51,139 nucleotides of DNA from the IMG/VR virus record IMGVR_UViG_2744054912_000002; one strand, 5' to 3'. This DNA comes from a virus (Duplodnaviria; Heunggongvirae; Uroviricota; Caudoviricetes). This document shows positions 17,056-51,139 of this stretch, in pieces (position 1 is the stretch's first letter; each line of letters starts with the position of its first letter). The position numbers and the translations under genes were made by a program. The notes beneath the pieces are model-generated. The model searched no databases. It saw nothing but the letters and a program-made list of their open reading frames with translations, and had not been told where the DNA came from.

Positions 17056-17057
17056 AT

Positions 17058-18561: not shown

Positions 18562-18564
18562 TCC

Positions 18565-18640: not shown

Positions 18641-18921
18641 TATTTGGTTGTAACACGGCGTCTGGCACATGCGTCGTTAGCGGTCTGGTGACGTTAAAGG
18701 GGTTACCTTTTCCCCTAGCTCAGGCAACAAACCAGGTAGCCGGAATGTGCAAGCCCCGTTCATAGCGTCGGACTGCGGATTCACCATCTTGGCGATTCGG
18801 TGTGACAGCCGGGAAGAGTCCGGCGAATTAATCCTGATTTTCTGGTGATGACTCATATCGTTAGGAGTGATTTGAGTATGCCGATTATATCTGACATTCA
18901 GCACGCCTGGGTGGAGTGCTA

Positions 18922-31994: not shown

Positions 31995-32187
31995 ATCCAA
32001 TCAATCACAGGAGCTGAAGATATGAACACGGCATTCTAAATCATTATGACCGCGATCTATTTCTGGCTGTTCTCTATCACTTTTGGCAGCATTGTCGCGC
32101 ATAGGTAAGGGGAGTATATTAGCCATTTGGAACCCCACGGTCTCTTGCGGGTTTAATTAAGAACCCGCAAGAAAAACACGAATTGGG

Positions 32188-35100
32188 CTATATTTTTCCG
32201 CCTACGCCTTTAAACTTCTCAATAAACGAGACGATTTTCTGGAAAACTGCCTGTTTTTTCGTTTTATATTGCGGATTTAACGGACTAAGTTTTGGTAATG
32301 TTTCGTTTAATTCTGTGCCATTTTCGGTGGCATATTCGCGTTTTAAAGACGTGCGAATATAGCGTTTTGCTGCATCTTCATTGAGATTTTCTTCTTTTAT
32401 CAATGCTTCTGCTTCACGTTGCTGTTCGCGTTGAGCAAACGTAAAGAATGCGTCAATGATGCTGGCTTTGTCCGGTAAATCATCCAGGTTCGTTTGCTGA
32501 ATAAAATCGACCACCAGGCCTTCTTTAGCACGGTTCCCCAGGCTTGAACGAATTAAGCGTTTGACCTCTTCGATCATTTCGCCCTTGCCTTTATTTTGTC
32601 TGTTGTGTTCGAAAATCAGTCCAAGGATATAATCCAGGTTTATTTCCTGAGACTTCAGCAAATCGACCTCAAAAACTACGTCATCCCAGTCAGTGGTTGA
32701 TTTCTCTTTTTTCTCAGCTTCTTTCTCACGGCGCTGCCAGTCGCGAATATCGTTATAGGCAGAACGATAATCCTGAATCTTGCGTTCAGCAGGGAGACGA
32801 ATTGTTTGCAATTCAGCGAACTTTTCATCATCCACATAATGTTCTGCTTTGAATTTTTCTACCGCAACAGGATCGCTAAGATCGATTTGTTGCAGGGCTT
32901 TTAGCGTGGCAAATTCATCATAGTTTTGCAGGATGTTCTCGGCACGCAGGTATTCGCCAAACAGTTTAACGAAGTCTTTCTTCTCTTTTTCACTTTCAAT
33001 ACTGGCAGGGTCAGGGAACCGTTGTTCCAGTTCTGAAACTACTGTCATGAAGCCGCGTTTAGCTTCACCAGTGGTAGCATCAGTAAAGCCTTCCATATAC
33101 TCTGCATAACTCTTTTCTAAAACCACATTTTTGGTATTTTTGTCACCAAACAGCGTTATGGCATCAATAGTTGAGCGTTCCAGATCCCGGAAAGTGACGA
33201 TATTACCGAAGGTTTTAGTTGCATCATAAATACGGTTGGTGCGGGAAAATGCCTGCATCAAGCCGTGAAAACGCAGGTTTTTATCGACGAATAGCGTGTT
33301 CAATGTTGGAGCATCGAAGCCGGTTAAAAACATCCCCACGACAATTAACAGATCGATATCCTGATTTTTAACCCGTTGGGCTAAATCACGATAGTAGTTC
33401 TGAAAACCGTTACTGTCGGTGCTGAAGTTAGTTTTAAAATAGCTGTTATACTCACGAATTGCAGCGTCAAGAAACTCTTTAGCACTGCTGTCCATTGCGC
33501 TGGTATCAAAAGTTTCATCGGAAATTTCACCAATGGCATTTTGTTCTTCATTGGCGGCAAAGGAGAAGATTGTCGCAACACGCAGCGATTTATAGGTGGC
33601 CGATTTATTAGCTGCTTCCTCTTGTAACCGTTTAAACGTCGCGTAATAGGCTTTCGCGGCATCCACGCTACTCACTGCCAGCATGGCATTAAAGCCTTTG
33701 GAACCTGGGAAAGTACGGTGGGTCTTCTGGCGGAAGTTATTCAGAATATATTGCGTAATTTCCTGTATACGCATGGGATGAAGAAACGCCTGCTGATTTT
33801 CAGCCGCACTCAGTTTTTTCTCGTCGGTTTCTGTCTCTAAAGACTTAAACTGTGGCCGCACATCGTTATAGTCCACCTTGAATTTGAGCACTTTTTCATC
33901 ACGAATCGCATCGGTAATAACATATGAATGCAATTCACGACCAAATACGCTGGCGGTCGTTTCTGAGCCTAAAGCGTTTTCCGGGAAAATAGGGGTGCCG
34001 GTAAAACCAAACTGATAATAGCGTTTGAATTTCTTCTTCAGGTTTTTCTGCGCTTCTCCAAACTGGCTGCGGTGGCATTCATCAAATATAAACACCACTT
34101 GCTGATTATATACAGGCAGGTCGCTTTCTGCTTTCATCAGGTTATTGAGTTTCTGAATAGTAGTGACGATAATTTTGTTATCGTCCTTATCCAGATTTCG
34201 TTTAAGGCCTGCGGTATTTTCCGAGCCGTTGACGCTGTCTGGCGAAAAACGCTGATATTCCTTCATGGTCTGGTAATCGAGGTCTTTCCTGTCGACCACA
34301 AAGAAGACTTTATCAATAAAGTCCAGCTCTGTTGCCAGACGCGCGGCTTTAAAGCTGGTGAGGGTTTTACCAGAACCGGTAGTATGCCAGATATACCCAC
34401 CGCTTTCCGGTTTTGACCAGTTCTTCGCTGTAAAGGAACTCTTAATTTTCCACAGAATGCGCTCGGTGGCGGCAATCTGGTACGGTCGCATCACCAGTAG
34501 CGTCTGACTACTGTCAAAAACGCTGTAGTTCACCAGAACATTCAGCAGAGTATGTTTCTGGAAAAAGGTAGCGGTAAAGTCTTTGAGGTCTTTAATCAGC
34601 GTGTTGTCTGATTTCGCCCAATTCATGGTGAAGTCAAAACTGTTTTTATCGCGCTTTGTCGTGTTGGCAAAATAACGGGTATCGGTGCCGTTAGAAATGA
34701 CAAACAGTTGCAGATACTTAAACAGGGAATTTTCGCTGTTAAAACTCTCTTTACTGTAACGATGTATCTGGTTGAAAGCCTCACGAATCGCCACCCCGCG
34801 TTTTTTTAGTTCGATTTGCACCAGCGGTAAACCATTAACCAGGATCGTGACGTCATAACGGTTAGCATGAGAACCCGTCTGTTCAAACTGCTGGATAATC
34901 TGCACCTTATTGCGCATGAGATTCTTTTTATCTATCAAATAGATGTTCTCAAGTCGCCCGTCGTCAAAAATAAAGTCGCAGATATAGTCGATATGGATTT
35001 TACGGGTTTTATCCAGAATACCATCGCTGGGGTTGTCCAGATACTGCTCCGTGAAGCGCCGCCACTCGCTGTCATTAAACATCACACCATTGAGGCTCTG

Positions 35101-35304
35101 AAGCTGTTCCCGAACATTAGACAGCATTGCCGACTGTGATTTTACGGAAATAAATTCATAACCCTGATTCCGCAGGTCCTGAATCAGTTCACGTTCCAGG
35201 TCCGATTCGCTCTGGTAGCTGTCGCTTGTTTGCTCAGCTTTGATGTACTTATCAAGGACGATAAAGTTATTGGATTCAGCAATGGTGTGTGTTTGATGAG
35301 TCAT
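32188..35304 (-). CDS. hsdR: Type I restriction enzyme R subunit HsdR (type IC, EcoR124-family)
   Basis: 1038 aa; SF2 helicase motifs (TGSGKT Walker A, DECH box); length equals EcoR124 HsdR as I recall. Confidence 0.95.
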
Positions 35305-35425
35305 AGCGCATCCTTTGTGCCGCCTGGCAAGAGCCGGAAGGGCGTTAAGAGTGACTTCCGGCGCGTAAAAAATAGTCTATATACTGACCGGGTGTTAAGG
35401 TGGCCCGATCGGTAGCAATGGTCAA

Positions 35426-36648
<1,223 letters not shown>

Positions 36649-36652
<4 letters not shown>

Positions 36653-38211
36653 TTTTGCACCTCGCAGCCTTCAATTTCAGCCACAATCGCATCAATATCT
36701 TTACGCAACTGGTCGATTTTGCTAACCGTAGTTTTAAGCTCTGCATTTAGCTCAGCAATATTGATAATTTCGCGGTTATCTTTCGCTTCTACATAGCAGC
36801 TCACCGACAGGTTATAGTCATTAGCGACAACGGTCTCAAACGCGACAGATTTCGCCAGATGAGCAACATCTTCCTTGCTGGCAAATACCTGCATAATCTG
36901 TTCGATATGGGCATCGGTCAGGATATTGTTGTTAGTCTCTTTTTTGAACAGTTCGCTGGCGTCAATAAACTGAACTTTGGTATCCGTTTTATGTTTAGAC
37001 AGCACCAGAATATTTACGGCAATGGTGGTGCCAAAGAACAGGTTCGGTGCCAGTGAAATCACGGTTTCGACATAGTTATTGTCAACCAGATACTGACGGA
37101 TTTTCTGCTCCGCGCCGCCACGGTAAAAAATGCCCGGGAAGCAGACAATCGCAGCACGACCTTTGGCAGAAAGATAGTTCAGCGCATGTAATACAAACGC
37201 AAAGTCAGCTTTGGATTTGGGGGCCAGAACGCCAGCCGGGGCAAAACGTTCATCGTTAATCAGCGTCGGGTCATCGCTGCCAATCCATTTCACCGAATAC
37301 GGCGGGTTAGAAACGATGGCATCAAACGGTTTTTCATCTCTGAAGTGCGGCTCAGTCAGCGTATTGCCCAGCTTGATATCAAACTTGTCGTAGTTGATGT
37401 TGTGCAAAAACATGTTCATACGCGCCAGGTTATAGGTCGTATGGTTGATTTCCTGACCAAAAAAACCTTCTTCGATGATATGGTCATCAAACTGTTTTTT
37501 AGCCTGCAACAACAGCGAACCAGAACCTGCTGCCGGGTCGTAGATTTTGTTAACATGGGTCTGCCCGTGCATAGCCAGTTGTGCAATCAGCTTAGAGACG
37601 TGCTGCGGTGTAAAGAACTCGCCGCCTGACTTACCAGCATTCGCCGCATAGTTAGAAATCAGGAACTCATAGGCATCGCCGAACAGGTCAATCTGATGTT
37701 CGTTAAAGTCGCCAAGCTTTAACCCTTCAACCCCTTTCAGAACCGCAGCCAGGCGGGCATTTTTATCCTTAACGGTGTTACCCAGGCGGTTACTGGTGGT
37801 ATCGAAATCAGCAAACAAACCTTTGATGTCAGCTTCTGAAGGGTAACCGTAAGCAGAACTTTCGATAGCAACGAAGATGCTGTTTAAATCTGCATTTAGT
37901 CTGTCATTGGTATTTGCTTTCGCCGCTACGTTGCAGAAAAGCTGACTGGGGTAGATGAAGTAACCTTTGGTTTTGATGGCATCGTCTTTAATGTCATCAG
38001 TAATTACGCTGTCATCCAGTTTCGCATAACAGATACTGTCATCACCGGCTTCAATATAGCTGGAAAAATTTTCGCTGATAAAACGGTAGAAAAGTGCGCC
38101 CAGAACGTATTGCTTAAAATCCCATCCATCGACCGAACCCCTGACATCGTTAGCAATTTGCCAGATTTGACGATGAAGCTCTGCACGTTGTTGAATACTT
38201 GTCATTTTCAT
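36649..38211 (-). CDS. hsdM: Type I N6-adenine DNA methyltransferase HsdM
   Basis: 520 aa; NPPY motif, AdoMet-binding region; 4-nt overlap with hsdS. Confidence 0.95.
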
Positions 38212-38350
38212 CCACTTATTTCAGGCTTATGTAATTGGATGTGATTCTACAGCAAATTGGATGCTTTAGCAGTTCGGACATTAGGCTACGAATGACCTGC
38301 CTAGAGGTTTGTTAAGCCGCAAAGTGCTGGTGCTTTATGCCTGTGAAGTT

Positions 38351-38379
38351 TATAATTGTGTACACATAACGAGTACACG
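38351..38379 (+). promoter_or_regulatory. phd-doc promoter with palindromic Phd/Doc operator sites
   Basis: TATAAT at 38351-38356 followed by palindromes tgtgtacaca and gagtacac. Confidence 0.65.
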
Positions 38380-38387
38380 AGGTGTTT

Positions 38388-38609
38388 ATGCAATCCATTA
38401 ACTTCCGTACCGCGCGCGGCAACCTTTCTGAAGTGCTCAACAATGTTGAGGCCGGGGAAGAGGTTGAAATCACCCGCAGAGGCCGTGAGCCAGCAGTAAT
38501 TGTCAGCAAGGCTACTTTCGAAGCCTACAAAAAAGCGGCGCTGGATGCTGAATTTGCATCCCTGTTTGACACCCTGGACTCCACCAACAAGGAACTGGTT
38601 AACCGATAA
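38388..38609 (+). CDS. phd: Antitoxin Phd (prevents host death)
   Basis: 73 aa from [39 protein letters not shown], as I recall P1 Phd. Confidence 0.9.
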
Positions 38610-38989
38610 TGAGGCATATATCACCGGAAGAACTTATTGCGCTTCATGATGCGAATATAAGCCGCTACGGCGGCCTGCCGGGAATGTCAGATCCGGGTAG
38701 GGCAGAGGCCATTATCGGGAGAGTTCAGGCCAGAGTTGTCTACGAAGAGATCACCGACCTTTTCGAAGTCTCCGCCACCTACCTGGTGGCTACAGCGAGA
38801 GGGCATATATTCAATGATGCCAATAAGCGTACCGCGCTAAACAGTGCGCTGTTATTTCTACGCCGTAACGGGGTGCAGGTATTTGATTCACCTGAACTGG
38901 CAGACCTTACCGTAGGGGCTGCGACCGGAGAGATATCTGTATCTTCTGTCGCCGACACGTTACGTAGATTGTATGGTTCTGCGGAGTAG
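38609..38989 (+). CDS. doc: Toxin Doc (Fic-fold kinase, death on curing)
   Basis: 126 aa; Fic-like motif [11 protein letters not shown]; start overlaps phd stop. Confidence 0.9.
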
Positions 38990-38993
38990 ATTA

Positions 38994-39173
38994 ATGGCAC
39001 GCAAATACAACAAATTGTCCCGTGAAGCGTTAAAGATGCTTCTTGATGGCGTGAGTCGCCGCAAGGTAAAGCAATACCTGGTTGGTAAGCAAATTGGAGT
39101 CAGGACCGCTATTGCTGTGTTATGCCGTCAGGAAATGGCTGTGCTTAAACAGAGAATGCCGGGCAGCAGATAA
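38994..39173 (+). CDS. Small basic protein downstream of doc (pdcA-like)
   Basis: Start at ATG preceded by GGAG; 59 aa. Confidence 0.45.
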   Translation: MARKYNKLSREALKMLLDGVSRRKVKQYLVGKQIGVRTAIAVLCRQEMAVLKQRMPGSR

Positions 39174-39200
39174 AGCCCAATCAGTGATTAAAGGTGTGAT

Positions 39201-40244
39201 GTGAAAGCCGTAATTACTCCCTTTGTACAGAAAGAGCTTGGCCTCGCCACGTTCAAAGTGGATCAGGAGGTCAGAAAGCTGGTGGAGGCTGGCCGTAAAT
39301 TTATTATGGAGCCGGTGCCGCGTGAGTTAATCGAGCACATGGAAGACGGCCTCGTTGTTACCGAGCAAACCATGGCAACAAATGAGGCGTTGCAGCCGTT
39401 TTTTAACAGCGATGAACTGTTTCGCCGTATTGGTGGAATTGACGCGCTGGTGGCGTGGTTGCGCAGGAAAGAGGGGCAATGCCAGGCCGCAGATCGTAGC
39501 TGGTGTGACAACCATATTGTCCACGCAGAACGAGACAATAGCGCGGTGTTGTTGTGCTGGCATCACGATAACCATTACCGGATGCGTGGTTTTAATGAGC
39601 TGAAAGAAACGCTGCATAATAATCGCGTTAACTGGATACTGGATGTCGCCCGTCAGGAAATGGGGCTTTCAGATGGCCATGATCTAAGTATTCAGGAACT
39701 GTGCTGGTGGGCTTTCATGCGCAACATGATGCACCTGATGCCGGAAGAAGTTTGCCGTATATCAATAAATAAGATGAAAGCCGCAACGCAGGATAGCGGA
39801 CCTCTGAAAGAGGCGGATATTCGCCCGTATGACGATCGCGCTACAGCATATGTTCAGATGATGGAAGAACGCGCCGCGCCGATGCGTGCAAAAGTATGCC
39901 CTGTGGATGTTGACTCCGACCCTGGCATGGCGCATTTCAAAATACCAAAACTGCAATCGCTAAAATTACCTGAGTACATGGACTTTGTTGCTTCCCGTCC
40001 ATGCTGTGGGTGTGGAGCGGCGGGAGCTGGCGCTCACATTACGCCTTATATCGTTCGTCATAGTCGATTATGCGCGCATGACATTTACGCAATTCCTCTG
40101 TGCCAGTCATGCCAGCGTGATATTGAGCGTGACCGCGATAATTGGGAGAAGACGCACGGTAGGCTGGCGATGCATCAACGATTGTTCTTTGATTACGCGC
40201 TTGGAGTCGGCGCTATCACAAGTCACTCGTCGAGCGTTATATAA
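39201..40244 (+). CDS. Cys-rich hypothetical protein (pdcB-like)
   Basis: 347 aa, GTG start; multiple Cys/His clusters. Confidence 0.55.
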
Positions 40245-40245
40245 A

Positions 40246-40262
40246 ATTGCTCTAATGTATTG
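40246..40262 (+). promoter_or_regulatory. C1 operator-like site upstream of lpa
   Basis: ATTGCTCTAATGTATTG. Confidence 0.6.
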
Positions 40263-40332
40263 CTATTTCTTTAATCGATGGTATTATATTCCACGTTGAT
40301 TAGTTGACATGGGCTAATCAGTAGGTGACAGG

Positions 40333-40785
40333 ATGTTACTTAACTGGCAGGGACGCCACTTCATGGAAATAAATCACTCACGAATAACATCGTACGAGAT
40401 TGCGGATTACATGATCCGCACTAAATCTCTTCTATCAGCGAAAGAACTCGCAGCAATTCTTGAAAAGGAATACCCGCATCTGGATGTCGATAAGCGCGAT
40501 GTTTATCTGCGCTTAAAGGCTATCGCTGTGTCTAAGTATTCGTCTGTTTTGATTGATGACAGTACACGCCCACGTAGATTTCAGATCCACTCTCTGAATC
40601 CTGAATTCTTTCGCCGTAGCCGCGCTCCGCGCCGGTTTGATGAAAAACTCCAGAACGAACTCTATATGACGCAGGACGAAAAGGAACGCCGGGAGCACCA
40701 GCCTTGGGTAATGGCGCGTCAACTTTTCAATAAGGTGGCCCGTCAGCACCGTCATTACGGTAATGCCACATCCGCACGTATCTGA
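40333..40785 (+). CDS. lpa: Late promoter activator Lpa-like protein
   Basis: 150-aa basic protein directly upstream of pacA with C1 operator in its promoter; AGGTGA RBS. Confidence 0.6.
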   Translation: MLLNWQGRHFMEINHSRITSYEIADYMIRTKSLLSAKELAAILEKEYPHLDVDKRDVYLRLKAIAVSKYSSVLIDDSTRPRRFQIHSLNPEFFRRSRAPRRFDEKLQNELYMTQDEKERREHQPWVMARQLFNKVARQHRHYGNATSARI

Positions 40786-40870
40786 TTGATTGCTTGCCCG
40801 TTCCGGGCCTTTTGACATGTGACTTTCGTTACCCTCGCGTCAAAAAGAGTTTTTACGAAAGGAAGCATAA

Positions 40871-42064
40871 GTGACCTGGGACGATCACAAGAAGAATTTT
40901 GCTCGCCTGGCGCGAGATGGTGGTTACACCATCGCACAGTATGCCGCCGAGTTTAATCTTAACCCTAATACCGCACGTCGTTATCTCCGTGCCTTCAAAG
41001 AAGACACCAGGACTGCGGACAGCCGCAAGCCAAATAAGCCAGTCAGGAAGCCACTAAAAAGCATGATCATTGATCACTCTAATGATCAACATGCAGGTGA
41101 TCATATTGCGGCTGAAATAGCGGAAAAACAGAGAGTTAATGCCGTTGTCAGTGCTGCAGTCGAGAATGCGAAGCGCCAAAATAAGCGCATAAATGATCGT
41201 TCAGATGATCATGACGTGATCACCCGCGCCCACCGGACCTTACGTGATCGCCTGGAACGCGACACCCTGGATGATGATGGTGAACGCTTTGAATTCGAAG
41301 CTGGCGATTACCTGATAGATAACGTTGAAGCGCGGAAGGCCGCGCGCGCTATGTTGCGTCGGTCCGGGGCCGATGTTCTGGAAACCACTCTTCTTGAAAA
41401 GTCTCTTTCTCACCTCCTTATGCTGGAGAACGCCAGGGATACGTGTATTCGCCTGGTGCAGGAAATGCGCGATCAGCAAAAAGGCGATGATGAAGGTACT
41501 CCGCCTGAATACCGTATCGCGAGCATGCTAAACAGCTGTTCCGCGCAGATAAGCAGCCTGATCAACACCATTTACAGCATCCGGAATAACTATCGAAAAG
41601 AAAGCCGGGAGGCGGAAAAGCACGCTTTGTCTATGGGGCAAGCTGGCATTGTTAAGCTGGCATACGAACGAAAGCGTGAAAATAACTGGTCAGTGCTGGA
41701 AGCTGCTGAATTCATCGAGGCGCATGGCGGGAAAGTGCCGCCCCTGATGCTGGAGCAAATCAAAGCCGATCTGCGTGCTCCTAAGACCAATACCGATGAT
41801 GAGGAAAGGCAAACAGCCGTCGGTGGCCCTTCTCTTGAAGATCTGGACAAAGTTGCGCGAGAACGGGCCGCCAACCGCCGCGCCGATGCCGCATTGTGGA
41901 TTGAGCAGCGTAGGGAAGAAATCGCCGATATCGTTGATACAGGCGGTTATGGAGATGTTGATACTGAAGGTGTATCAAACGACCCATGGCTGGAACAAGA
42001 CCTGGACGAAGACGAGGAGGAAGACGAAGAAGTTACCCGCAAGCTATACGGGGATGATGATTAA
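40871..42064 (+). CDS. pacA: Packaging endonuclease small subunit PacA
   Basis: 397 aa; contains the pac hexamer clusters within its 5' coding region. Confidence 0.85.
41062..41224. other. pac: pac packaging site: two clusters of TGATCA/GATC hexamers (4 + 3)
   Basis: GATC hexamers at about 41064, 41071, 41083, 41098 and 41193, 41205, 41217. Confidence 0.75.
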
Positions 42065-43548
42065 TGGCCAGAAGTTGCGTAACGGATCCACGTTGGCGCG
42101 AGCTGGTGGCGCTATATCGTTATGACTGGATTGCGGCCGCTGATGTTTTGTTCGGCAAAACACCTACCTGGCAGCAGGATCTGATTATTGAGTCTGTGCA
42201 GGAACAGGGTAGCAAGACATCTGTTTCGTCTGGTCACGGTACCGGGAAATCAGACATGACTTCTATCATGATCATGTTGTTCATAATCATGTATCCCGGT
42301 GCCCGCGCCATTATCGTTGCGAACAAAATTCAGCAGGTAATGACCGGTATATTCAAGTACATCAAGATAAACTGGGCTACTGCCACCAGCCGTTTTCCAT
42401 GGCTTGCTGATTATTTTGTTCTGACAGAAACCGCTTTCTATGAGGTTACTGGTAAAGGTGTATGGACTGTAGTACCGAAGGGCTTTCGTCTGGGAAGTGA
42501 AGAAGCTCTCGCCGGTGAACACGCAGACCATCTTCTGTATATTATCGATGAAGCCTCCGGTGTCAGTGATAGAGCTTTCGGTATCATCACCGGTGCTCTT
42601 ACCGGACAGGATAACCGCATCTTATTGCTGTCACAGCCTACACGCCCAAGCGGCTATTTCTACGATACACACCATAAACTGGCCAAGCGTCCTGGTAACC
42701 CAGATGGCGTTTATACGGCGATCACGCTTAACAGTGAGGAATCACCGCTGGTAACGCCAGAATTTATCAAAATGAAGCTGGCGGAGTACGGCGGGCGTGA
42801 TAACCCTATGTACATGATTAAGGTACGCGGCCTATTCCCTAAATCACAGGACGGCTTCCTTCTTGGACGTGATGAGGTTGAACGTGCGACGCGGCGGAAA
42901 GTCAAGATTGCCAAAGGATGGGGCTGGCTTGCATGTGTGGACGTTGCTGGTGGTACAGGACGGGATAAGTCCGTTATCAATATCATGATGGTGTCCGGCC
43001 AGCGAAATAAACGCCGTGTAATCAACTATCGAATGCTGGAATACACAGACGTTACAGAAACGCAGCTTGCCGCCAAAATTTTCGCAGAATGTAATCCTGA
43101 GCGATTCCCAAACATCACCATAGCGATAGACGGCGATGGGCTGGGTAAAGCAACGGCGGATCTGATGTACGAGTATTATGGTATTACCGTACAGCGCATA
43201 CGCTGGGGTAAAAAGATGCATAGCCGTGAAGATAAGAGCCTGTACTTTGATAAACGTGCTTATGCCAACGTTCAAGCCGCAGAGGCCGTAAAATCTGGTC
43301 GTATGAGACTGGATAAGGGTAATGAAACTATTGAGGAAGCGTCGAAAATCCCTGTAGGGATTAACTCCGCGGGTCAATGGAAAGTGATGAGTAAGGAGGA
43401 TATGAAGAAAAAACTCAACCTGCACTCACCAGACCATTGGGATACATATTGTTTCGCTATGCTGGCGGATTATGTTCCCCAGGATGAAGTGCTTAGCGTC
43501 GAAGACGAAGCGCAGGTTGATGAAGCTCTGGCATGGCTTAATGAATGA
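42064..43548 (+). CDS. pacB: Terminase large subunit PacB
   Basis: 494 aa; ATPase/nuclease terminase-like; ATGA overlap with pacA. Confidence 0.85.
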
Positions 43549-43550
43549 AT

Positions 43551-43567
43551 ACTTGCTCTAATAAATT
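43551..43567 (+). promoter_or_regulatory. C1 operator-like site after pacB
   Basis: ACTTGCTCTAATAAATT (one mismatch to consensus). Confidence 0.55.
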
Positions 43568-43700
43568 GTGTTTTTTAACTGCCGATGTTACATTGAGCCT
43601 GACCTCTTGCGCCTTGAGGCATTTTCGGTTTATGCTTATCAGGCACCTCAGTAAAACGGGTGCCGGGATTGAGACCCCGGATAATGCAAAAGGCGACACA

Positions 43701-43722
43701 GACGCCAAAAGCGTCTTTTTTT
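43701..43722 (+). terminator. Rho-independent terminator
   Basis: gacgc-caaaa-gcgtc followed by T7. Confidence 0.6.
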
Positions 43723-43744
43723 GTGTCATGCCATCGCACAGCCA

Positions 43745-43880
43745 TACGTAGCGTTTAGCTCAGAGATCAATGGTAGTGCTGGCTGGGCTGCCGAAAGGCA
43801 GGCCGGTTCCCTTTTGCGCCGGTAGTCTCAACCCAGTCAGTGCTACCGCCATTGAGATTGAGACCTCACGCGGTAGCTCC
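43745..43880 (+). ncRNA. Structured leader / candidate c4-like antisense regulatory RNA
   Basis: Long imperfect closing stem (43765-43782 with 43823-43844), GAAA-tetraloop hairpin (43788-43801), second hairpin (43803-43822) whose loop is complementary to the downstream RBS. Confidence 0.4.
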
Positions 43881-43907
43881 TTAAATTAGCAAAAGGAGGC
43901 TGCCATT

Positions 43908-44129
43908 GTGGCTACTATCCCTACCCCTGCTCATCCTGAATTTATCTGGCGCTTTTACTCCTGCCAAAAACGTCACTATCACTTCGTTATTGCACCGACA
44001 GAAGATGAGGCACGTTCTCAGCTTCCGGATGCTCCCTGTATTTTCTCTGCCCGCTTTTCTACCGATTCGCGCAATTCTCTCAGTTACTGGTGCCTCCCTG
44101 TTAACGCTTCTGCTCAGGAGGGACTATGA
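43908..44129 (+). CDS. Small protein translationally coupled to the antirepressor (icd-like, 73 aa)
   Basis: AAAGGAGG RBS; stop TGA overlaps the ATG of the next gene (ATGA); my hand count of the start codon was off by 1 nt, so I follow the ORF track. Confidence 0.5.
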   Translation: MATIPTPAHPEFIWRFYSCQKRHYHFVIAPTEDEARSQLPDAPCIFSARFSTDSRNSLSYWCLPVNASAQEGL

Positions 44130-45238
44130 GAACGTCATTAGTCACCCGTGAAGAGATGATCGAGGCAATTGAACAGCACACTGCCTGTATCAGTACCAGG
44201 GATATACCGGGCGTTATTGCCAACTACTTCATGATCACCAAACAACTTTACCGGAGAAAGGACAAACACGCGGTTCACCGCATTCTGCTAACCGATATCC
44301 GTGAATACCTGCTCGAACAGGGTCATCTGAATTACGCAACCGTCGCAGCCGAAGCACGCAAGGAGGCACACAGAATGAAAGCAACTAACGTTAAATCAGA
44401 AAAAATTTATGCACCTTCAGTTCAGGAATCGGAACTGGTGGTTGTTCAGAATCAGCCGGATGAAATTCCCGTTCTGGAATGGCAGGGAGTACGTGTCGTG
44501 ACAACCGAAACTCTTGCTAGAGGGTATGGTGTCGATGAAGCCAATATTCGCAACAATTTGTCTCGCAACCTTGACCGCTTTGAAGAAGGTAAGCATTACT
44601 TTCTTCTAACTGGTTTAAAATTAAGAGAATTTAAGAACAGAGTAACCGGAAGTTACTCTGTTGGTAAGAACGCCAGAAGCCTTACACTCTGGACAGAGCG
44701 CGGCGCTGCACGCATGTCTAAGATCGTGGACACAAATGAAGCATGGGCATTCTTTGAAAAACTGGAAGACAGCTACTTCCGGCAAAAAGAACAGCAACCG
44801 GTTGCAATCCCCCAGACGCTTCCAGAAGCTCTGCGCCTGGCTGCCGAACTGGCTGAACAAAAGCAGCTTCTGGAACAGAAAGCCCACCAGCTAAATCAGC
44901 AGCTGGTGGCCGCCGCTCCTAAAGTCGATTTTGCCGACCGGGTATCAGTAGCTAAAGGGATCCTGATTGGGAATTTTGCAAAGGTTGTTGGACTTAAGCA
45001 AAACGCGCTGTTTGCCTGGTTACGGGAGAACGGCATCCTGATAGCGTCCGGTGGACGTAAAAATGTGCCGTTCCAGCAGTACATCAATGCGGGGTATTTC
45101 ACGGTGAAAGAAGTGGTGCTGGATGATGAAGATGGCTACCAGATACGGTTGACGCCTCAATTAACGGGTAAAGGCCAGCAGTGGTTGACGCGTAAACTGC
45201 TCGATGCTGGCTTGTTAAAACCGGTGGCGGCTGAATAA
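44126..45238 (+). CDS. Antirepressor-like protein (ORF6N-like N-terminal domain plus KilA-C/AntA-like C-terminal domain)
   Basis: 370 aa; ...VRVVTTETLARGYGVDEANIRNNLSRNLDRFEEGKHYFLL... and C-terminal ...PFQQYINAGYFTVKEV... Confidence 0.7.
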   Translation: MRTSLVTREEMIEAIEQHTACISTRDIPGVIANYFMITKQLYRRKDKHAVHRILLTDIREYLLEQGHLNYATVAAEARKEAHRMKATNVKSEKIYAPSVQESELVVVQNQPDEIPVLEWQGVRVVTTETLARGYGVDEANIRNNLSRNLDRFEEGKHYFLLTGLKLREFKNRVTGSYSVGKNARSLTLWTERGAARMSKIVDTNEAWAFFEKLEDSYFRQKEQQPVAIPQTLPEALRLAAELAEQKQLLEQKAHQLNQQLVAAAPKVDFADRVSVAKGILIGNFAKVVGLKQNALFAWLRENGILIASGGRKNVPFQQYINAGYFTVKEVVLDDEDGYQIRLTPQLTGKGQQWLTRKLLDAGLLKPVAAE

Positions 45239-45270
45239 TGGAAGAATGCCCGGTTGATGCCGGGCATAAT

Positions 45271-46122
45271 TTATTGCGCGCTTTCGGGGTTGTCGTTTAC
45301 TGGCTGCCCCTTCTTGGTTTTACGGCTGCGCGTAACTGATGCGCCTGACTTAACCTTTTTCTCTTCGCGAGTGATGGCAATTTGTTTTTTTACATTTTCA
45401 ATATCTGCCAGGCGATATATTTTTGCTTGCGGCCAGCGGTCGCAGATGATCGGTTCTATGGAGTCATAAAGGCTAAATTTTGCTTTTTCGAATTCACCGT
45501 TGATGATAATTCCATCACGGAGAGTTTCATCGCAGATAAACACGCCACACAGTGGCACATGGTAACTAACTGATTTACCATCATTGTAGTTAGGGCTACT
45601 GGAAATGTAGTGGACGCGCAGCATTGTTTCGCTAAAGCCGTGTACGCGCATACGGAATTTTTCATCCTCCGGGTACTGCCTCATTAGCTCTTTTGTTGCT
45701 TCCAGGTTCTCTATGTATTTCGCACTGTGCTCATTGAGCCCCGCGCTTTTTTGGATGCGAATGTCCTTATCAATCAGATGAATAATGCGGCCAGCGGTCA
45801 TGTTGACGCTGTTCACAGCTTCTGTCTGATAAGTTGTAACCTTACGTACACCGCGAAGGATGTTAGGCACTGGATATAAAATAGTCTTTGGGATATTGAG
45901 GTCTGGGTACTGTTCCAGTTCCCGCGCCATTAAAGTCCATTTATCAATTTCAGCCTGAATGCTGTCAGTTTCTTTGAACGGTAGAACGACAACCGGGCGT
46001 ACAGGACGACCGTCGCTGGCTGTATCAACGTGTTGGGCGCGTGCAACAGCTTTTTTTAGAAAGAGATCCCTGAAGCTGACGAACTCCTGGTACAGTTGTT
46101 CGCCGTAGACATAATTTATCAT
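45271..46122 (-). CDS. c1: Primary lysogeny repressor C1
   Basis: 283 aa, matching P1 C1 length; preceded by coi, with operator-like sites upstream. Confidence 0.9.
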   Translation of the reverse strand: MINYVYGEQLYQEFVSFRDLFLKKAVARAQHVDTASDGRPVRPVVVLPFKETDSIQAEIDKWTLMARELEQYPDLNIPKTILYPVPNILRGVRKVTTYQTEAVNSVNMTAGRIIHLIDKDIRIQKSAGLNEHSAKYIENLEATKELMRQYPEDEKFRMRVHGFSETMLRVHYISSSPNYNDGKSVSYHVPLCGVFICDETLRDGIIINGEFEKAKFSLYDSIEPIICDRWPQAKIYRLADIENVKKQIAITREEKKVKSGASVTRSRKTKKGQPVNDNPESAQ

Positions 46123-46232
46123 TGATCCTCCTCCAGAATTGACATGGTCAATAACGCCCGGCTGAGAAAACCGGTCATTACTGACCTATATTATAGAGGG
46201 ATCAAACAAAAATAATAGATTTATTAGTGCAT

Positions 46233-46442
46233 TTATTGTGAGTCTAACTGGTTAGTTGCCATGAGATATTCGATTGTGTCAGTGAGGTCATCCAGGTCGT
46301 CTTGGGTGATGCGGTACTCCTGATTGGATATCTTTGAGTAGTGTTCAGCAATGGCGCGGGCAGCGTCGGTTTCGGCAGGGTCTACAGATAAAGCGTTAGA
46401 GCAATGTCTAACGTCGTCGATGGTTGGTTGAATGAAAGCCAT
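46233..46442 (-). CDS. coi: C1 inactivator Coi
   Basis: 69-aa ORF immediately upstream of c1 in the same orientation. Confidence 0.7.
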   Translation of the reverse strand: MAFIQPTIDDVRHCSNALSVDPAETDAARAIAEHYSKISNQEYRITQDDLDDLTDTIEYLMATNQLDSQ

Positions 46443-46681
46443 AATTATGCCTCACTGTATTGACAACACAGAGCCTGAAGCTCTGACCTACTGTTTCACC
46501 CATGATCCATGCTGGGGTAATCTAACAACATTGCGCTGTGTGTAAGATGAGCAATGCATAGCTGTAATGCCGTTGTATAAGGTTTCCCTGTTTGCCCATT
46601 TCCTTCTGAGCCGCTCTACAACGCTGAAGACACATTAAATAGTGAATCCAAAGTCGTATTACGTAACGGCGGCAAAACTAT

Positions 46682-46698
46682 AATTTATTAGAGCAATT
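46682..46698 (-). promoter_or_regulatory. C1 operator-like site (immC region)
   Basis: Reverse complement of aatttattagagcaat is ATTGCTCTAATAAATT. Confidence 0.65.
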
Positions 46699-46763
46699 GT
46701 CAAACAACTATGAAAAACAATCCAGTTTTTGGCTGGTGGAGTGGGATTTTTCTCTCAAAATTT

Positions 46764-46780
46764 ATTGCTCTAATAATTCT
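46764..46780 (+). promoter_or_regulatory. C1 operator-like site (immC region)
   Basis: ATTGCTCTAATAATTCT. Confidence 0.65.
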
Positions 46781-46823
46781 TGATTTTTATGCGCAACTGG
46801 ACGTAAACTCCTCTTCAGACCTA

Positions 46824-46857
46824 ATAACTTCGTATAGCATACATTATACGAAGTTAT
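46824..46857 (+). other. loxP: loxP site-specific recombination site
   Basis: Exact 34-bp ATAACTTCGTATA-GCATACAT-TATACGAAGTTAT. Confidence 0.97.
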
Positions 46858-47046
46858 CTTAAGGGTTATTGAACATGATCAATTTACCTGTAAATCCATA
46901 CAGTTCAATACCTTATCAGGTCAAATAGTGATCACTTGATCATTTGATCAAGGTTGCGCTACGTAAAATCTGCGAAATGTTGGCAGTGTTAGTGCTCCAG
47001 ATTTCGCGTAGCGCACTTAGCACCACCAATCAATCAGAGGTGAAAA

Positions 47047-47268
47047 ATGGGATATTCAGCTGCTAAAGTGTCCACTCATATTGAGCTTGAGAAAAACCGT
47101 GGTTACTGGCGGGCAAAAGGGTTTGATCGTGATAGTTGTCAACTGTCATTATCGCGCGGTGAAGAGAAAATAGAACGCACGCGCGGTCGCTGGCGTTTCT
47201 ATGACGAGAACCATAAACAGGTAAAGGCAGAGCCGATCCTGTACACTTTACTTAAAACCATTATCTGA
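47047..47268 (+). CDS. Small basic hypothetical ORF in the cre leader
   Basis: 73 aa; strong SD AGAGGTG 5 nt before ATG; stop 8 nt before cre start; could also be non-coding leader. Confidence 0.35.
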   Translation: MGYSAAKVSTHIELEKNRGYWRAKGFDRDSCQLSLSRGEEKIERTRGRWRFYDENHKQVKAEPILYTLLKTII

Positions 47269-47275
47269 GTGTTAA

Positions 47276-48307
47276 ATGTCCAATTTACTGACCGTACACC
47301 AAAATTTGCCTGCATTACCGGTCGATGCAACGAGTGATGAGGTTCGCAAGAACCTGATGGACATGTTCAGGGATCGCCAGGCGTTTTCTGAGCATACCTG
47401 GAAAATGCTTCTGTCCGTTTGCCGGTCGTGGGCGGCATGGTGCAAGTTGAATAACCGGAAATGGTTTCCCGCAGAACCTGAAGATGTTCGCGATTATCTT
47501 CTATATCTTCAGGCGCGCGGTCTGGCAGTAAAAACTATCCAGCAACATTTGGGCCAGCTAAACATGCTTCATCGTCGGTCCGGGCTGCCACGACCAAGTG
47601 ACAGCAATGCTGTTTCACTGGTTATGCGGCGGATCCGAAAAGAAAACGTTGATGCCGGTGAACGTGCAAAACAGGCTCTAGCGTTCGAACGCACTGATTT
47701 CGACCAGGTTCGTTCACTCATGGAAAATAGCGATCGCTGCCAGGATATACGTAATCTGGCATTTCTGGGGATTGCTTATAACACCCTGTTACGTATAGCC
47801 GAAATTTCCAGGATCAGGGTTAAAGATATCTCACGTACTGACGGTGGGAGAATGTTAATCCATATTGGCAGGACGAAAACGCTGGTTAGCACCGCTGGTG
47901 TAGAGAAGGCACTTAGCCTGGGGGTAACTAAACTGGTTGAGCGATGGATTTCTGTCTCTGGTGTAGCTGATGATCCGAATAACTACCTGTTTTGCCGCGT
48001 CAGAAAAAATGGTGTTGCCGCGCCATCATCCACCAGCCAGCTATCAACTCGCGCCCTGGAAGGGATTTTTGAAGCAACTCACCGATTGATTTACGGGGCA
48101 AAAGATGACTCTGGTCAGCGATACCTGGCCTGGTCTGGACATAGTGCCCGTGTCGGTGCTGCGCGAGATATGGCCCGCGCCGGAGTTTCTATACCGGAGA
48201 TCATGCAAGCTGGCGGCTGGACCAACGTAAATATTGTCATGAACTACATTCGTAACCTGGATAGTGAAACGGGGGCAATGGTGCGCCTGCTGGAAGATGG
48301 CGATTAG
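47276..48307 (+). CDS. cre: Cre tyrosine recombinase
   Basis: 343 aa, MSNLLTVHQNLPALPVDATSDEVRKNLMDMFRDRQAFSEHTWKMLL...; catalytic tyrosine region at C-terminus; 436 nt from loxP centre. Confidence 0.98.
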   Translation: MSNLLTVHQNLPALPVDATSDEVRKNLMDMFRDRQAFSEHTWKMLLSVCRSWAAWCKLNNRKWFPAEPEDVRDYLLYLQARGLAVKTIQQHLGQLNMLHRRSGLPRPSDSNAVSLVMRRIRKENVDAGERAKQALAFERTDFDQVRSLMENSDRCQDIRNLAFLGIAYNTLLRIAEISRIRVKDISRTDGGRMLIHIGRTKTLVSTAGVEKALSLGVTKLVERWISVSGVADDPNNYLFCRVRKNGVAAPSSTSQLSTRALEGIFEATHRLIYGAKDDSGQRYLAWSGHSARVGAARDMARAGVSIPEIMQAGGWTNVNIVMNYIRNLDSETGAMVRLLEDGD

Positions 48308-48324
48308 CCGTTCATTTGCTCTTG

Positions 48325-48341
48325 ATTGCTCTAATTATTTA
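48325..48341 (+). promoter_or_regulatory. C1 operator-like site downstream of cre
   Basis: ATTGCTCTAATTATTTA. Confidence 0.6.
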
Positions 48342-48357
48342 ATATTTATGGTGACAC

Positions 48358-48669
48358 ATGCGGAAGGATTTCAAAATAGACGGAAAATATGTGGTGCTGT
48401 CTGTAAGCTCTCAAATTCAGTCACCATCTGTCATTGTCACCGTAAAGTTGAGCGATAGGATGCCTGATATCGACTCGATATCTGTTGCGTTCCCCGTTAA
48501 AAGCATGCGGAGTGCTGAACATTTTGTGATGAATGCAACGGAGGAGGAAGCGCGGCGCGGGCTTACTAGAGTGATGGGGGAATTTGGCGAACTCCTGGGT
48601 AAGGTAAACAATGCCCTTTCAATCAGTTCAGCAAGGTCCAAAGCGTTAACAGCTTCCATGATGAAATAA
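48358..48669 (+). CDS. Hypothetical protein (cra-like by position)
   Basis: 103-aa ORF between cre and ref. Confidence 0.5.
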   Translation: MRKDFKIDGKYVVLSVSSQIQSPSVIVTVKLSDRMPDIDSISVAFPVKSMRSAEHFVMNATEEEARRGLTRVMGEFGELLGKVNNALSISSARSKALTASMMK

Positions 48670-48802
48670 AAAAAAGCCTGGCAAGGAGCCAGGCTGCACA
48701 AAAGAGCGGGTTTGTATTCCGCATCCAATCAATCAAGAAGGAGTATAGCACACAGGTACTGAAGTGAAAAAATGTGATTCGCGATAAACAAAATATCTAC
48801 CA

Positions 48803-48819
48803 TTGCTCTAATTGATTGC
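48803..48819 (+). promoter_or_regulatory. C1 operator-like site(s) overlapping the ref promoter
   Basis: ATTGCTCTAATTGATTG with overlapping second half-site and TATAAT at 48821-48826. Confidence 0.6.
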
Positions 48820-48885
48820 TATAATTTAGCCGCAGTTTTTGTCAACTACGAAGACGTTGCCATTACTTCACTCCTTGACATCATT

Positions 48886-48911
48886 GGCGGCCATTAGGCC
48901 GCCTTTTTTTT
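48886..48911 (+). terminator. Hairpin plus T8 immediately upstream of the ref start codon
   Basis: ggcggcc-atta-ggccgcc followed by tttttttt, 5 nt before ATG. Confidence 0.55.
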
Positions 48912-48916
48912 GCCAT

Positions 48917-49366
48917 ATGAAAACAATCGAACAAAAACTTGAACAGCGCCGCGAGTGGCAGAAGGCAGCCAGAGAACGAGCGATCGCTCGGCAACAGGAA
49001 AAGTTGGCTGACCCCGCCTGGCGAGAATCGCAATATCAGAAAATGCGGGATTCTATCGACCGCCGTATCGCTAAACAGAAAGAGCGCCCACCAGCCAGCA
49101 AAACGCGGAAAAGTGCGGTAAAGATAAAATCTCGTGGCTTGAAGGGGCGAACACCGACAGCGGAGGAACGGAGCATCGCCAATGCTCTTGGCGCTCTCCC
49201 CTGCATTGCCTGCTACATGCATGGAGTAATATCAGAAGAGGTATCTCTGCACCATATCTCCGGTCGTACCGCGCCGGGTTGTCACAAAAAGCAATTGCCC
49301 CTTTGTAGATGGGGGAACCGCAGAATTCGGAAAAAATCGTACGCTAAGCTAACGGTGTTCTCGTGA
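48917..49366 (+). CDS. ref: Recombination enhancement function Ref (HNH-family), apparently 3'-altered/truncated
   Basis: MKTIEQKLEQRREWQKAARERAIARQ...CIACYMHGVI...HKKQLPLCRW then unrelated tail; about 149 aa versus about 186 aa recalled for P1 Ref. Confidence 0.7.
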   Translation: MKTIEQKLEQRREWQKAARERAIARQQEKLADPAWRESQYQKMRDSIDRRIAKQKERPPASKTRKSAVKIKSRGLKGRTPTAEERSIANALGALPCIACYMHGVISEEVSLHHISGRTAPGCHKKQLPLCRWGNRRIRKKSYAKLTVFS

Positions 49367-49444
49367 CAGCTCTTTGACTAGGCTTTCTAAGGCCATTCTG
49401 ATAGCCCTGACTTCCTGAAAAGCCATGGCTAAAATTTGTGCGGC

Positions 49445-49480
49445 TAAAAGGGATAACCGATGGTAAAGTAAGTTATCCCT
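49445..49480 (-). terminator. Terminator-like hairpin downstream of the Aer-like gene
   Basis: agggataac / gttatccct 9-bp inverted repeat with T-rich tract on the - strand. Confidence 0.45.
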
Positions 49481-49499
49481 GTCGAGATACTGAAAAGCG

Positions 49500-51012
49500 T
49501 TATCCTCGTTTTTCCCAAAACTGTTTTGCCAGTTCGCTCAGAGCGCTAGTTAACTGAGCGACAGATTTCGCACTTTGCAAATTATTCTGCCCGGTCTGTA
49601 CATTGGTATCAGCAGCATCGCGTATATTGATAATACTGCGGTTTATGTCTTCACTTACTGCTCCCTGCTGCTCGACCGCAGTCGCTATTTGCGCGTTCAT
49701 GTCGGTAATTTCGTTAACGCGTTGGCCAATTCCATCAAGAGCTGTAGCTGCTTCCTCTGCGTGAGCTACACTCGTGTGCGCTTGCCGACTACTTTGCTCC
49801 ATGACTGTAACAGCGGATTGCGCTCGCTCTTGTAGAGCGCTGATCATGCTTTGAATATCCGTTGTCGATTGCTGTGTGCGAGCAGCAAGACTGCGAACCT
49901 CATCGGCGACAACAGCAAAACCACGCCCCTGCTCACCAGCACGCGCGGCCTCAATTGCTGCGTTGAGTGCCAACAAATTCGTTTGCTCGGCGATCCCTCG
50001 TATAACGTCAAGAACTTTTGATATCTCGTTACTTTGACCTTCAAGCTCATGAATAACCTGAGTGGCTTGCCTAATTTCACCTTCAAGGGCAGTGATTGAC
50101 TGGCTTGTGTGGGCTACCAGACGCTGGCCAGATGCCGTCTCAGTGTCTGCTCTTCCGGCCGCATCTGCAGCATGCTGTGCATTGCTCGCAACCTCTTGAA
50201 TGCTTGCCACCATTTGGTTTACTGCCGTTGCTATTTGATCTGTCTCTGCCTGCTGCTCAACTGTAAGTACATTGCTTGACTCAATATCCTTTAGTAGGCC
50301 TCGGGTGTGTTCGCTAAGCCGATTTGATGCATCACCTATGCGACCTACTATGGCGCCTGTTTCAGCTTGCATCATTCGTAAAGCAAACTCTATTTGGCCA
50401 AACTCATCGGTGCGCCCAGTGTAGAGGGATTGACTTAATGGGTTATTGGAAATATTCCTGGCTCTTTCAACCAGTCTTCCAAGAGGAGAGAGAATAGCCA
50501 AAACACTAACAGAGCTTAAGCTTCCTGACATTAAAGTGGCTAACAATAAGCTGCTTATTGATGTATCAGTAAGCATGCCGGCAGCCATTGCGCTTGATAT
50601 AATACTACCCCATATGAGCAAGAGTATTTTCACGGAAAAGCTAGCAGCCAATTTCGGCCTCGCGGCCTTCCCGCTTCTCAATTGAGCATATAATTTTTCC
50701 GCAGCCAAAACCTGCTCAGGTTCAGGCTTGGTCCTTACAGACTGGTATTCAACAATCGAACCATTCTTAGCTATTGGCGTTACATAAGCACTTACCCAAT
50801 AGTGGTCGCCATTTTTACAGCGATTTTTTACTAGCCCCATCCATGAGCGGCCAGATTTTAATGTACTCCACATATGCTCAAATGCAGCAGGCGGCATATC
50901 TGGGTGTCTTACGATGTTGTGAGGCTGGCCTAATAGTTCTTCCTCAGTGAAACCACTGATTTTAATGAAGTCAGGATTAACGTACGTGATATGGCTTTGA
51001 GGGGAGGTAGTC
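49500..51012 (-). CDS. PAS-domain methyl-accepting chemotaxis protein (Aer-like aerotaxis receptor), 5'-truncated by IS26
   Basis: PAS region [21 protein letters not shown]...NGDHYWV; MCP signalling domain [30 protein letters not shown]; the track start codon (GTG) lies inside the IS26 inverted repeat. Confidence 0.75.
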
Positions 51013-51139
51013 GGCACTGTTGCAAATAGTCGGTGGTGATAAACTTATCATCCCCTTTTGCTGATGGAGCTGCACATGAACCCATTCAAAGGCCGGCATT
51101 TTCAGCGTGACATCATTCTGTGGGCCGTACGCTGGTACT
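51013..51139 (+). mobile_element. IS26 (IS6 family) left end: terminal inverted repeat and start of transposase gene; element continues beyond the window
   Basis: GGCACTGTTGCAAA terminal repeat at 51013-51026; downstream sequence matches my memory of IS26. Confidence 0.9.
51077..51139 (+). CDS. tnpA: IS26 transposase Tnp26, N-terminal 21 codons (partial)
   Basis: MNPFKGRHFQRDIILWAVRWY. Confidence 0.9.

Follow-up and report, generated by a model that had tools for sequence, protein, structure and literature searches.

Positions 49311-51139, at the right end of the window (the whole 51,139-nucleotide stretch of viral DNA analyzed here), belong with high confidence to a resistance island derived from Tn1721/Tn1722, of which they form the left end and which is seated in ref of a P1-like phage-plasmid (Table 1). 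The chemoreceptor gene at this end, taken in a preliminary description for a chromosomal-type, Aer-like fragment belonging to an IS26-mediated cargo region, is identified by its sequence as the known passenger gene mcp/orfI of Tn1721/Tn1722, and on its left the resistance island in fact begins at the transposon's left inverted repeat (IRL) in ref. None of the sequence matches behind the IS26, ORF, truncation and Aer-resemblance findings is attributable to chance.

Table 1. Features at the left end of the resistance island and the adjoining part of ref
Feature	Coordinates	Strand	Remarks
P1 ref, 5' part	48917..49310	+	codons 1-131 plus 1 nt, out of 186
TAGAT, left copy of the 5-bp target-site duplication	49306..49310	.	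right copy seen in relatives
Tn1721/Tn1722 IRL, 38 bp, GGGGGAACCGCAGAATTCGGAAAAAATCGTACGCTAAG	49311..49348	+	38/38 identity to IRL of annotated Tn1721 copies
Tn1721 non-coding spacer, IRL to mcp stop	49349..49499	.	within the 100% identical block 49311-51013 of L002 and L003
5'-truncated mcp/orfI of Tn1721/Tn1722 (PAS-HAMP-MCP protein)	49500..51012	-	native codons 23-525 and stop retained
IS26 left end, cut by the window edge	51013..51139	+	127/127 identity to annotated IS26 copies

Transposon end in the ref gene

The window is a P1-like phage-plasmid, of which positions 186-49312 follow P1 (53412-94800, then 1-2472) collinearly, the main collinear blocks being 93-99% identical and known variable blocks lying between them. 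This collinear P1 backbone, with cre, c8 and ref, is that of a Punavirus. The best PLSDB match to the whole window reached 95% coverage at 97.5% identity, and zero PLSDB records matched it over its full length.

The 5' part of ref shows 95-99% identity to the ref genes of P1, P7 and RCS47, and in the BLAST comparison with plasmids this homology stops at about 49312. The gene is broken after codon 131 of 186, from where a hybrid ORF runs into the transposon as far as a stop at 49366, and Pfam RecA_dep_nuc is accordingly matched at profile positions 1-57 of 103 only. What follows the break is the 38-bp IRL, which went unnoticed in the preliminary description. All 38 positions are the same in the IRL beside mcp in SJ46, MH445380, L002 (an Enterobacter plasmid) and pDETEC37, and 35 of the 38 agree with the inverted IRR located just past tnpA, the 2,967-bp Tn3-family transposase gene. 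The segment starting at 49311 is present in thousands of enterobacterial plasmids (BLAST), and among the plasmid matches listed, most of those to the transposon begin at about 49311.

Insertion of a Tn3-family element is expected to leave a 5-bp duplication. Both pDETEC37 and pCRST032_1 carry, past the window edge, the IRR followed by a second TAGAT and then by the in-frame continuation of ref (tagatGGCACCACCAGCATGCAGCACC), with IRL-IRR spans of 30,615 bp and 40,221 bp, respectively. Three characters of Tn1721/Tn1722 were found together, namely the 38-bp inverted repeat, mcp/orfI beside the IRL and reading toward it (the mcp stop codon lying 151 bp away), and the 5-bp duplication in relatives. 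The res site, tnpR and tnpA are absent within the window, and what is seen is therefore a transposon remnant and not a functional transposon. The core of the transposon (res, tnpR, tnpA) is deleted beside IS26 in pDETEC37, with a tnpA remnant at the IRR, while pCRST032_1 has an intact tnpA at its IRR end.

The IRL and IRR bounds, together with TAGAT at both ends in the relatives, argue strongly that Tn3-family transposition brought the island into the phage-plasmid, duplicating the 5 bp TAGAT, and that the island would hardly have come via IS26 as had been supposed. As the first step, a Tn1721-family transposon with its own PAS-MCP passenger gene would have jumped into ref, where TAGAT marks the break between codon 131 and codon 132; the anatomy of this step is present in the window, and from it we infer the insertion event itself. 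Because the window stops within IS26, the far end of its own island is presumed from the relatives to resemble theirs, and to the right of 51139 one would expect the 820-bp IS26, resistance modules and, further on, CTTAGCGTACGATTTTTTCCGAATTCTGCGGGCTCCCC then TAGATGGCACCACCAG (the 3' end of ref).

The truncated mcp gene and its junction with IS26

The ORF on the minus strand (49500-51017) encodes 505 amino acids with Pfam PAS_3, HAMP and MCPsignal domains, and an identical 1518-bp CDS was called by PGAP in pDETEC37 (WP_063856230.1). The intact protein has 525 residues (L002 6661-8238; L003 8191-9768). Aligned to it with an offset of 20, the window copy is identical at 504 of 506 positions, stop included; residues 1-20 are gone, L21 has become the initiator and S22 is replaced by P, so that the loss of roughly 20 residues suggested at the outset holds, at a cost of 65 bp of 5' coding sequence. 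At the DNA level, mcp is 100% identical over 1,513 bp to the intact mcp standing beside tnpR and tnpA in L002, L003 and CP057799.1. The annotation of the SJ46 record names the element Tn1721 and the gene its mcp, as do papers on SJ46 (PMC5241659). The basic transposon of Tn1721 is Tn1722, which codes for an MCP whose overexpression disturbs chemotaxis (PMC5756416); going by the citation in PMC3817090, the original description of Tn1721/Tn1722 is that of Allmeier et al. (1992, Gene 111:11). The PGAP label "TnAs1 family transposase" reflects the shared tnpA/tnpR half alone.

The resemblance to Aer that had been pointed out stands as to architecture and as to the PAS domain, and it does not extend to orthology. 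The gene product shares with Escherichia coli Aer the PAS-HAMP-MCP layout, with a membrane anchor between PAS and HAMP, and PAS residues 7-126 align with Aer 1:1 and ungapped at 64 of 120 positions (53%). Over 500 aligned residues, however, identity to Aer of E. coli K-12 is 33%, and no NCBIfam equivalog scored above its cut-off for the MCP, the top one being CtpM with 267 bits against a cut-off of 900; an Aer orthologue is ruled out on these two grounds. In sequence terms the MCP is a distant Aer homologue of the same architecture, differing also in being plasmid- and transposon-borne and, here, in being devoid of the N-cap. The lost residues 1-20 align 1:1 to Aer residues 1-19, which make up the PAS N-cap, and to L20; this cap is reported to be essential to the stability of Aer and to its signalling (PMC9668731).

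On the other side of the junction (51012/51013), the window holds the first 127 of 820 bp of IS26, identical throughout to the 820-bp copies of pDETEC37, L002 and pCRST032_1. The 14-bp terminal repeat GGCACTGTTGCAAA is exact at 51013-51026, as originally reported; the tnp26 ATG, which had been placed one base too far right at 51077, is at 51076, 63 bp inside the end, and opens the coding sequence of MNPFKGRHFQRDIILWAVRWY. Terminal repeat, tnp26 start position and identity are thus all those of IS26 (IS6 family). The truncation of the MCP gene by IS26 and the position of its apparent start inside the repeat were likewise borne out, the GTG being the reverse complement of 51015-51017 (bases 3-5 within the repeat of IS26) and two further IS26 bases entering codon 2 (CCG). 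Neither a full-length alignment without N-terminal loss nor a mismatch of the repeat to IS26, either of which would have told against the truncation, was encountered.

For IS26, an 8-bp duplication is expected only after simple insertion. The 8-bp duplication that the preliminary description proposed to look for is absent around the IS26 of pDETEC37 (AGGTAGTC vs GGATTGAA), and in the pDETEC37 record from 18674 to 100000, which covers the whole island, neither a partner flank AGGTAGTC beside any other IS26 nor the lost 65 bp of mcp was found. IS26 makes adjacent deletions, is incorporated in a targeted manner beside an existing IS26 and recombines between copies, often with no 8-bp duplication (PMC4196232). 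A missing duplication is usual and does not disqualify the IS26 identity.

The junction of the window recurs in 5 PLSDB records, non-P1 Klebsiella plasmids among them, and a second IS26::mcp junction 5 bp away in 327, mostly from Klebsiella; altogether 297 of the 332 records matching IS26::mcp junctions are Klebsiella. The second type, as in NZ_CP087149.1, has the same IS26 orientation, affects the same 5' end and also draws its start codon from IS26. It differs in lying 5 bp further upstream with exactly 20 codons lost, and in its other frame relative to IS26, which supplies 13 IS26-encoded residues and an in-frame ATG. The block of IRL, mcp remnant and IS26 (1,829 bp, 100%) is found in L008, a non-P1 plasmid of K. 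pneumoniae from Laos, and in three further records besides this one and pDETEC37. Break points in mcp made by other IS26 copies and by ISEcp1 also exist.

The junction of IS26 with mcp is directly observed. As a second step, IS26 would have come to adjoin mcp 65 bp into its coding sequence, and the stretch from the 5' end of mcp through res and tnpR (in some descendants also tnpA) would have been deleted or swapped for IS26-associated resistance modules, whether by an IS26 adjacent deletion or, at an IS26 already in place, by recombination or targeted incorporation. These IS26 events are probably later than, or independent of, the insertion into ref, because pDETEC37 has no 8-bp duplication and lacks the 65 bp across its whole island, and because mcp is cut differently in pCRST032_1 and in the 327 plasmids. 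Such patterns agree with what IS26 is known to do (PMC4196232).

Relatives of the island and alternative histories

A probe of 80 bp spanning the ref::IRL junction was searched against 72,556 plasmids and 5,426 complete E. coli genomes, and only two records matched, pDETEC37 (NZ_CP116153.1, E. coli, China) and pCRST032_1 (NZ_AP045803.1, E. coli, Ecuador). With the same ref junction and TAGAT in these relatives, the three molecules therefore stem from one insertion into ref. pDETEC37 has the same ref::IRL and IS26::mcp junctions and is 99.9% identical over 46557-51139, but bears extra IS1-flanked cargo upstream on a diverged backbone. pCRST032_1 has the same ref::IRL junction and is 99.2% identical over 38312-50758, but its IS26 is inverted and lies 254 bp deeper in mcp. 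Neither relative matches the window in full.

In pDETEC37, the IS26 corresponding to that of the window is directly followed by mph(A)-mrx(A)-mphR(A)-IS6100, next by a complex class 1 integron with aac(6')-Ib-cr, arr-3, dfrA27, aadA16, ISCR1-qnrB6 and sul1, and after it by IS26-flanked oqxAB, strAB and the tnpA remnant at the IRR. The island of pCRST032_1 likewise comprises IS26-mph(A)-mrx(A)-mphR(A)-IS6100 and class 1 integron genes. The resistance region that had been predicted beyond the window is therefore supported by the mph(A) unit and class 1 integron genes of both ref-junction relatives, and a multiresistance region probably continues past the window edge.

Compared with Tn1721/Tn1722 itself, this island shares the identical 38-bp IRL and spacer, the 1,513 bp of mcp at 100%, the 5-bp duplication in relatives and, at the far end of pCRST032_1, IRR and tnpA. 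It differs in that the end seen here keeps only the IRL and the 5'-truncated mcp, and in that res, tnpR, most or all of tnpA and the tet(A) module are lost or replaced by IS26-associated resistance modules. The Salmonella phage-plasmid SJ46 / P1-CTX offers a close parallel, with a P1-like backbone, a Tn1721-family element in ref and a disrupted mcp, the element being Tn1721-blaCTX-M-27 in the ref-mat region (PMC5241659, PMC11117986). Its insertion site is near the 3' end of ref with the duplication TATGA(A), whereas that of the window is at codon 131 with TAGAT, and its mcp is split by ISEcp1-blaCTX-M-27-IS903D, whereas that of the window is truncated by IS26. As a carrier of the same ref junction SJ46 was rejected for its IRL near the ref 3' end and its TATGA(A) duplication, which mark an independent insertion (PMC11117986). 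MH445380, recorded as "phage P1" and with mcp-tnpR-tnpA intact, is not the same event either, since its ref is intact, with the IRR roughly 270 bp upstream, and its IRL adjoins non-P1 DNA. CP057799.1, whose match reached the IS26 boundary, was considered as the state before IS26 and discarded, its Tn1722 being elsewhere in the backbone and its ref intact.

Three other accounts of this end deserve to be weighed against insertion of Tn1721 followed by IS26 remodelling. That IS26 captured a chromosomal Aer-type fragment and carried it onto the phage-plasmid in an IS26-bounded cargo segment could be read from the IS26 that immediately adjoins the gene, the IS26-rich resistance regions that follow in relatives and a PAS domain 53% identical to that of E. 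coli Aer. On the other flank of the gene, however, 151 bp beyond its stop, stands the Tn1721 IRL, and the gene matches mcp of intact Tn1721/Tn1722 with tnpR and tnpA at 100% identity, chromosomal Aer at 33% overall; moreover, the bounds of the island are IRL and IRR, with a duplication of 5 bp, instead of IS26 with one of 8 bp. The gene is not a chromosomal-type IS26 capture because of its identity to Tn1721 mcp, the IRL alongside and its merely distant homology to Aer, and the probability left to this account is negligible, IRL and target duplication having refuted it in practice. A reversed order with the same identity of the parts carries more weight, though it remains the less favored sequence of events: IS26 would have cut mcp first, and a pre-assembled IRL...IRR resistance transposon would then have entered ref whole. 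The identical 1,829-bp block in L008 and other records fits such an order, as does the intact tnpA by the IRR of pCRST032_1, with which the ancestor could have been transposition-competent, and the deeper, inverted cut of pCRST032_1 could stem from a junction of the window type through a further IS26 event. Yet the three ref-junction plasmids differ in IS26 position, orientation and internal content, which remodelling after insertion explains equally well, and the junction could have been brought in through homologous recombination inside mcp or IS26. With the same block in non-P1 Klebsiella plasmids, truncation before or after entry into ref therefore fits.

A third account concerns the product and not the history, and holds that the IS26-mcp fusion is expressed through read-out from IS26 and the GTG of the repeat, so that a PAS-MCP devoid of its N-cap perturbs chemotaxis or energy taxis of the host. 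The uninterrupted frame of 505 codons and its CDS call in pDETEC37 speak for it, as do the independent junction 5 bp away, also in-frame with an ATG inside IS26 and present in 327 plasmids, and the reported disturbance of chemotaxis by full-length Tn1722 MCP if overexpressed (PMC5756416). It is nevertheless very improbable, since neither a promoter-like site nor a ribosome-binding site was found and the N-cap, essential in Aer, is missing (PMC9668731); the open frame is uninformative in a remnant too young to decay, the count of 327 probably reflects the spread of related Klebsiella plasmids and not selection, and further IS26 and ISEcp1 break points in mcp are known.

Coding potential of the remnant and loss of Ref

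A scan of the minus strand over 49250-51139 gave no sigma-70-like site, and no Shine-Dalgarno sequence precedes the GTG (upstream sequence ...CCGACTATTTGCAACA). Upstream of the GTG, the outward -35 box of IS26 (TTGCAA) can be read, and a usable -10 to go with it is lacking. A hybrid promoter joining this box to a -10 in mcp was considered and rejected, the candidates at a spacing of 16-18 bp being CCCTCA, CCTCAA and CTCAAA, the GTG lying upstream of any resulting transcription start and the minus-strand scan being empty. As a third step, mcp has lost, together with its promoter and ribosome-binding site, both its native start codon (ATG) and the PAS N-cap. The GTG in the repeat is merely the first in-frame start-type codon following an upstream stop, and the 505-residue ORF is most likely an unexpressed, recently formed pseudogene, still open because, at 100% identity to its parent gene, it has lacked the time to decay. 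The newer PGAP flags the equivalent remnant of pCRST032_1 as a pseudogene, while an earlier run made the call of a 505-residue CDS in pDETEC37.

The active-site residues of Ref are H134 and H153 (PMC4713147), and both fall past the break point. The cut in ref removes these histidines of the nuclease and leaves Ref inactive. P1 Ref makes lysogens more sensitive to ciprofloxacin (PMC4713147), and the quinolone-resistance genes in the island of pDETEC37 are qnrB6, aac(6')-Ib-cr and oqxAB. Tn1721-family insertions in or beside ref are also found in SJ46 and MH445380 as independent events. From the cut ahead of the histidines, the quinolone-resistance cargo and these independent insertions, it follows that selection could act on ref loss. 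That the knock-out of ref, rather than the scar in mcp, is the biologically meaningful event, and that recurrent ref disruption in resistance-bearing P1-like plasmids is positively selected under fluoroquinolone, is a speculative proposal and on balance an unlikely one; target preference, or simply a permissive site, is the other account of this recurrence. Weaker still is the alternative in which the IS26-mcp fusion ORFs are expressed and the receptors, devoid of their N-cap, change motility.

Tn1721/Tn1722 remnants beside IS26 are already known, as are resistance regions that Tn1721 has carried into the ref-mat area in P1-like phage-plasmids (PMC5241659, PMC11117986, PMC9603915), and what the present analysis chiefly offers is a correct annotation. 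On an enterobacterial plasmid or phage-plasmid, a PAS-MCP or "Aer" gene by IS26 marks a Tn1721/Tn1722 remnant and is no evidence for chromosomal gene capture or a chemotaxis function, and a 505-residue CDS starting inside IS26 should be treated as a pseudogene. Overall, we present the window as an additional member of a small lineage with a unique ref::Tn1721 junction and two known relatives, from China and Ecuador, shaped by Tn3-family transposition and then IS26 remodelling, a pathway already documented in the P1-like SJ46 and P1-CTX.

Divergence of the backbone and its cargo from P1

Features of the window and of related plasmids are compiled in the table below. In the partition region, parA retains about 65% identity with its P1 counterpart while no homology between the window and P1 was detectable for parB/parS, and a divergence of this extent suggests that the par/incompatibility type of the window differs from that of P1. 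The type I restriction-modification block takes the place of P1 segment 84482-87970, and its hsdS region shows the greatest divergence from the window's closest relative, the E. coli plasmid pDETEC37. The tRNA gene with the CAT anticodon was called as Met by ARAGORN, whereas its counterpart trnI is annotated as tRNA-Ile2 in P1.

The additional icd-like and antirepressor module contains a 370-aa ORF with ORF6N and KilAC/ANT domains and shares 70-81% DNA identity with P1 icd/ant1. Unlike the window, P1 has no icd/antirepressor genes between pacB and c1; the E. coli plasmid pCRST032_1 carries the same module at the same position, and CP057799.1 has an antirepressor gene only. The reductase operon of pDETEC37, whose genes cover the three subunits A, B and C as well as a chaperone and a ferredoxin, is placed between c1/coi and the lox-cre region, and chromosomal-type cargo (bcs cellulose synthase genes and an autotransporter) is found further along that plasmid; the window lacks all of these.

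Features of the window and its relatives
Feature	Location	Strand	Remarks
Partition region	window 5718-8093		strongly diverged from P1
In-frame insertion in P1 dmt homologue	window 13254-14273	+	within ORF 13020-16307
tRNA Asn-GTT	window 16981-17055	+	P1 trnA
tRNA Thr-TGT	window 17058-17133	+	P1 trnT
tRNA, CAT anticodon	window 18565-18640	+	P1 trnI
Type I restriction-modification block	window about 32113-38311		hsdR, hsdS, hsdM, assigned via matching pDETEC37 annotation
Additional icd-like + antirepressor module	window 43547-45238	+	between pacB and c1
Tn1721-family insertion in ref	window 48917-49366		TAGAT, codon 131
Tn1721-family insertion	SJ46 12758-21390		TATGA(A), close to ref 3' end
Tn1721-family insertion	MH445380 8002-13641		IRR ~270 bp upstream of ref
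DMSO/selenate-reductase-family operon, IS1-flanked	pDETEC37 10265-16273		point equivalent to window 46557
IS26-mcp hybrid ORF	NZ_CP087149.1 4528-6084		same junction in 327 PLSDB records

An intein in the Dmt methyltransferase

The dmt homologue encodes 1095 aa in the window against 754 aa in P1, owing to an in-frame insertion of 340 aa with Hint and LAGLIDADG domains. With junctions GGTP|CFTAGH...VVHN|CQAFS, and Cys1, the terminal His-Asn and the +1 Cys all present, the insertion is a canonical intein, located at the catalytic P-C-Q motif in the C5-cytosine methyltransferase half of Dmt. In PLSDB it is present in ~126 plasmids of E. coli, Salmonella and Shigella, and the matches listed give its host protein no label other than "Dam family methyltransferase" or "hypothetical protein". 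A search of the open-access literature turned up no paper on this intein.

Recurrent insertions at mcp and ref

A second IS26 junction within the chemoreceptor gene mcp, very common among Klebsiella plasmids and typified by NZ_CP087149.1, lies 5 bp upstream of the break point in the window and is a separate, independent insertion event. Exactly 20 codons of mcp are lost there, and the resulting hybrid ORF is in-frame, its ATG and first 13 codons being supplied by IS26.

Within or beside ref of P1-like elements, at least three independent Tn1721-family insertions were recognized (the window, the Salmonella phage-plasmid SJ46 and MH445380), and a fourth copy, in CP057799.1, is located elsewhere. 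Since Ref makes lysogens more sensitive to ciprofloxacin (PMC4713147), loss of ref might be advantageous.
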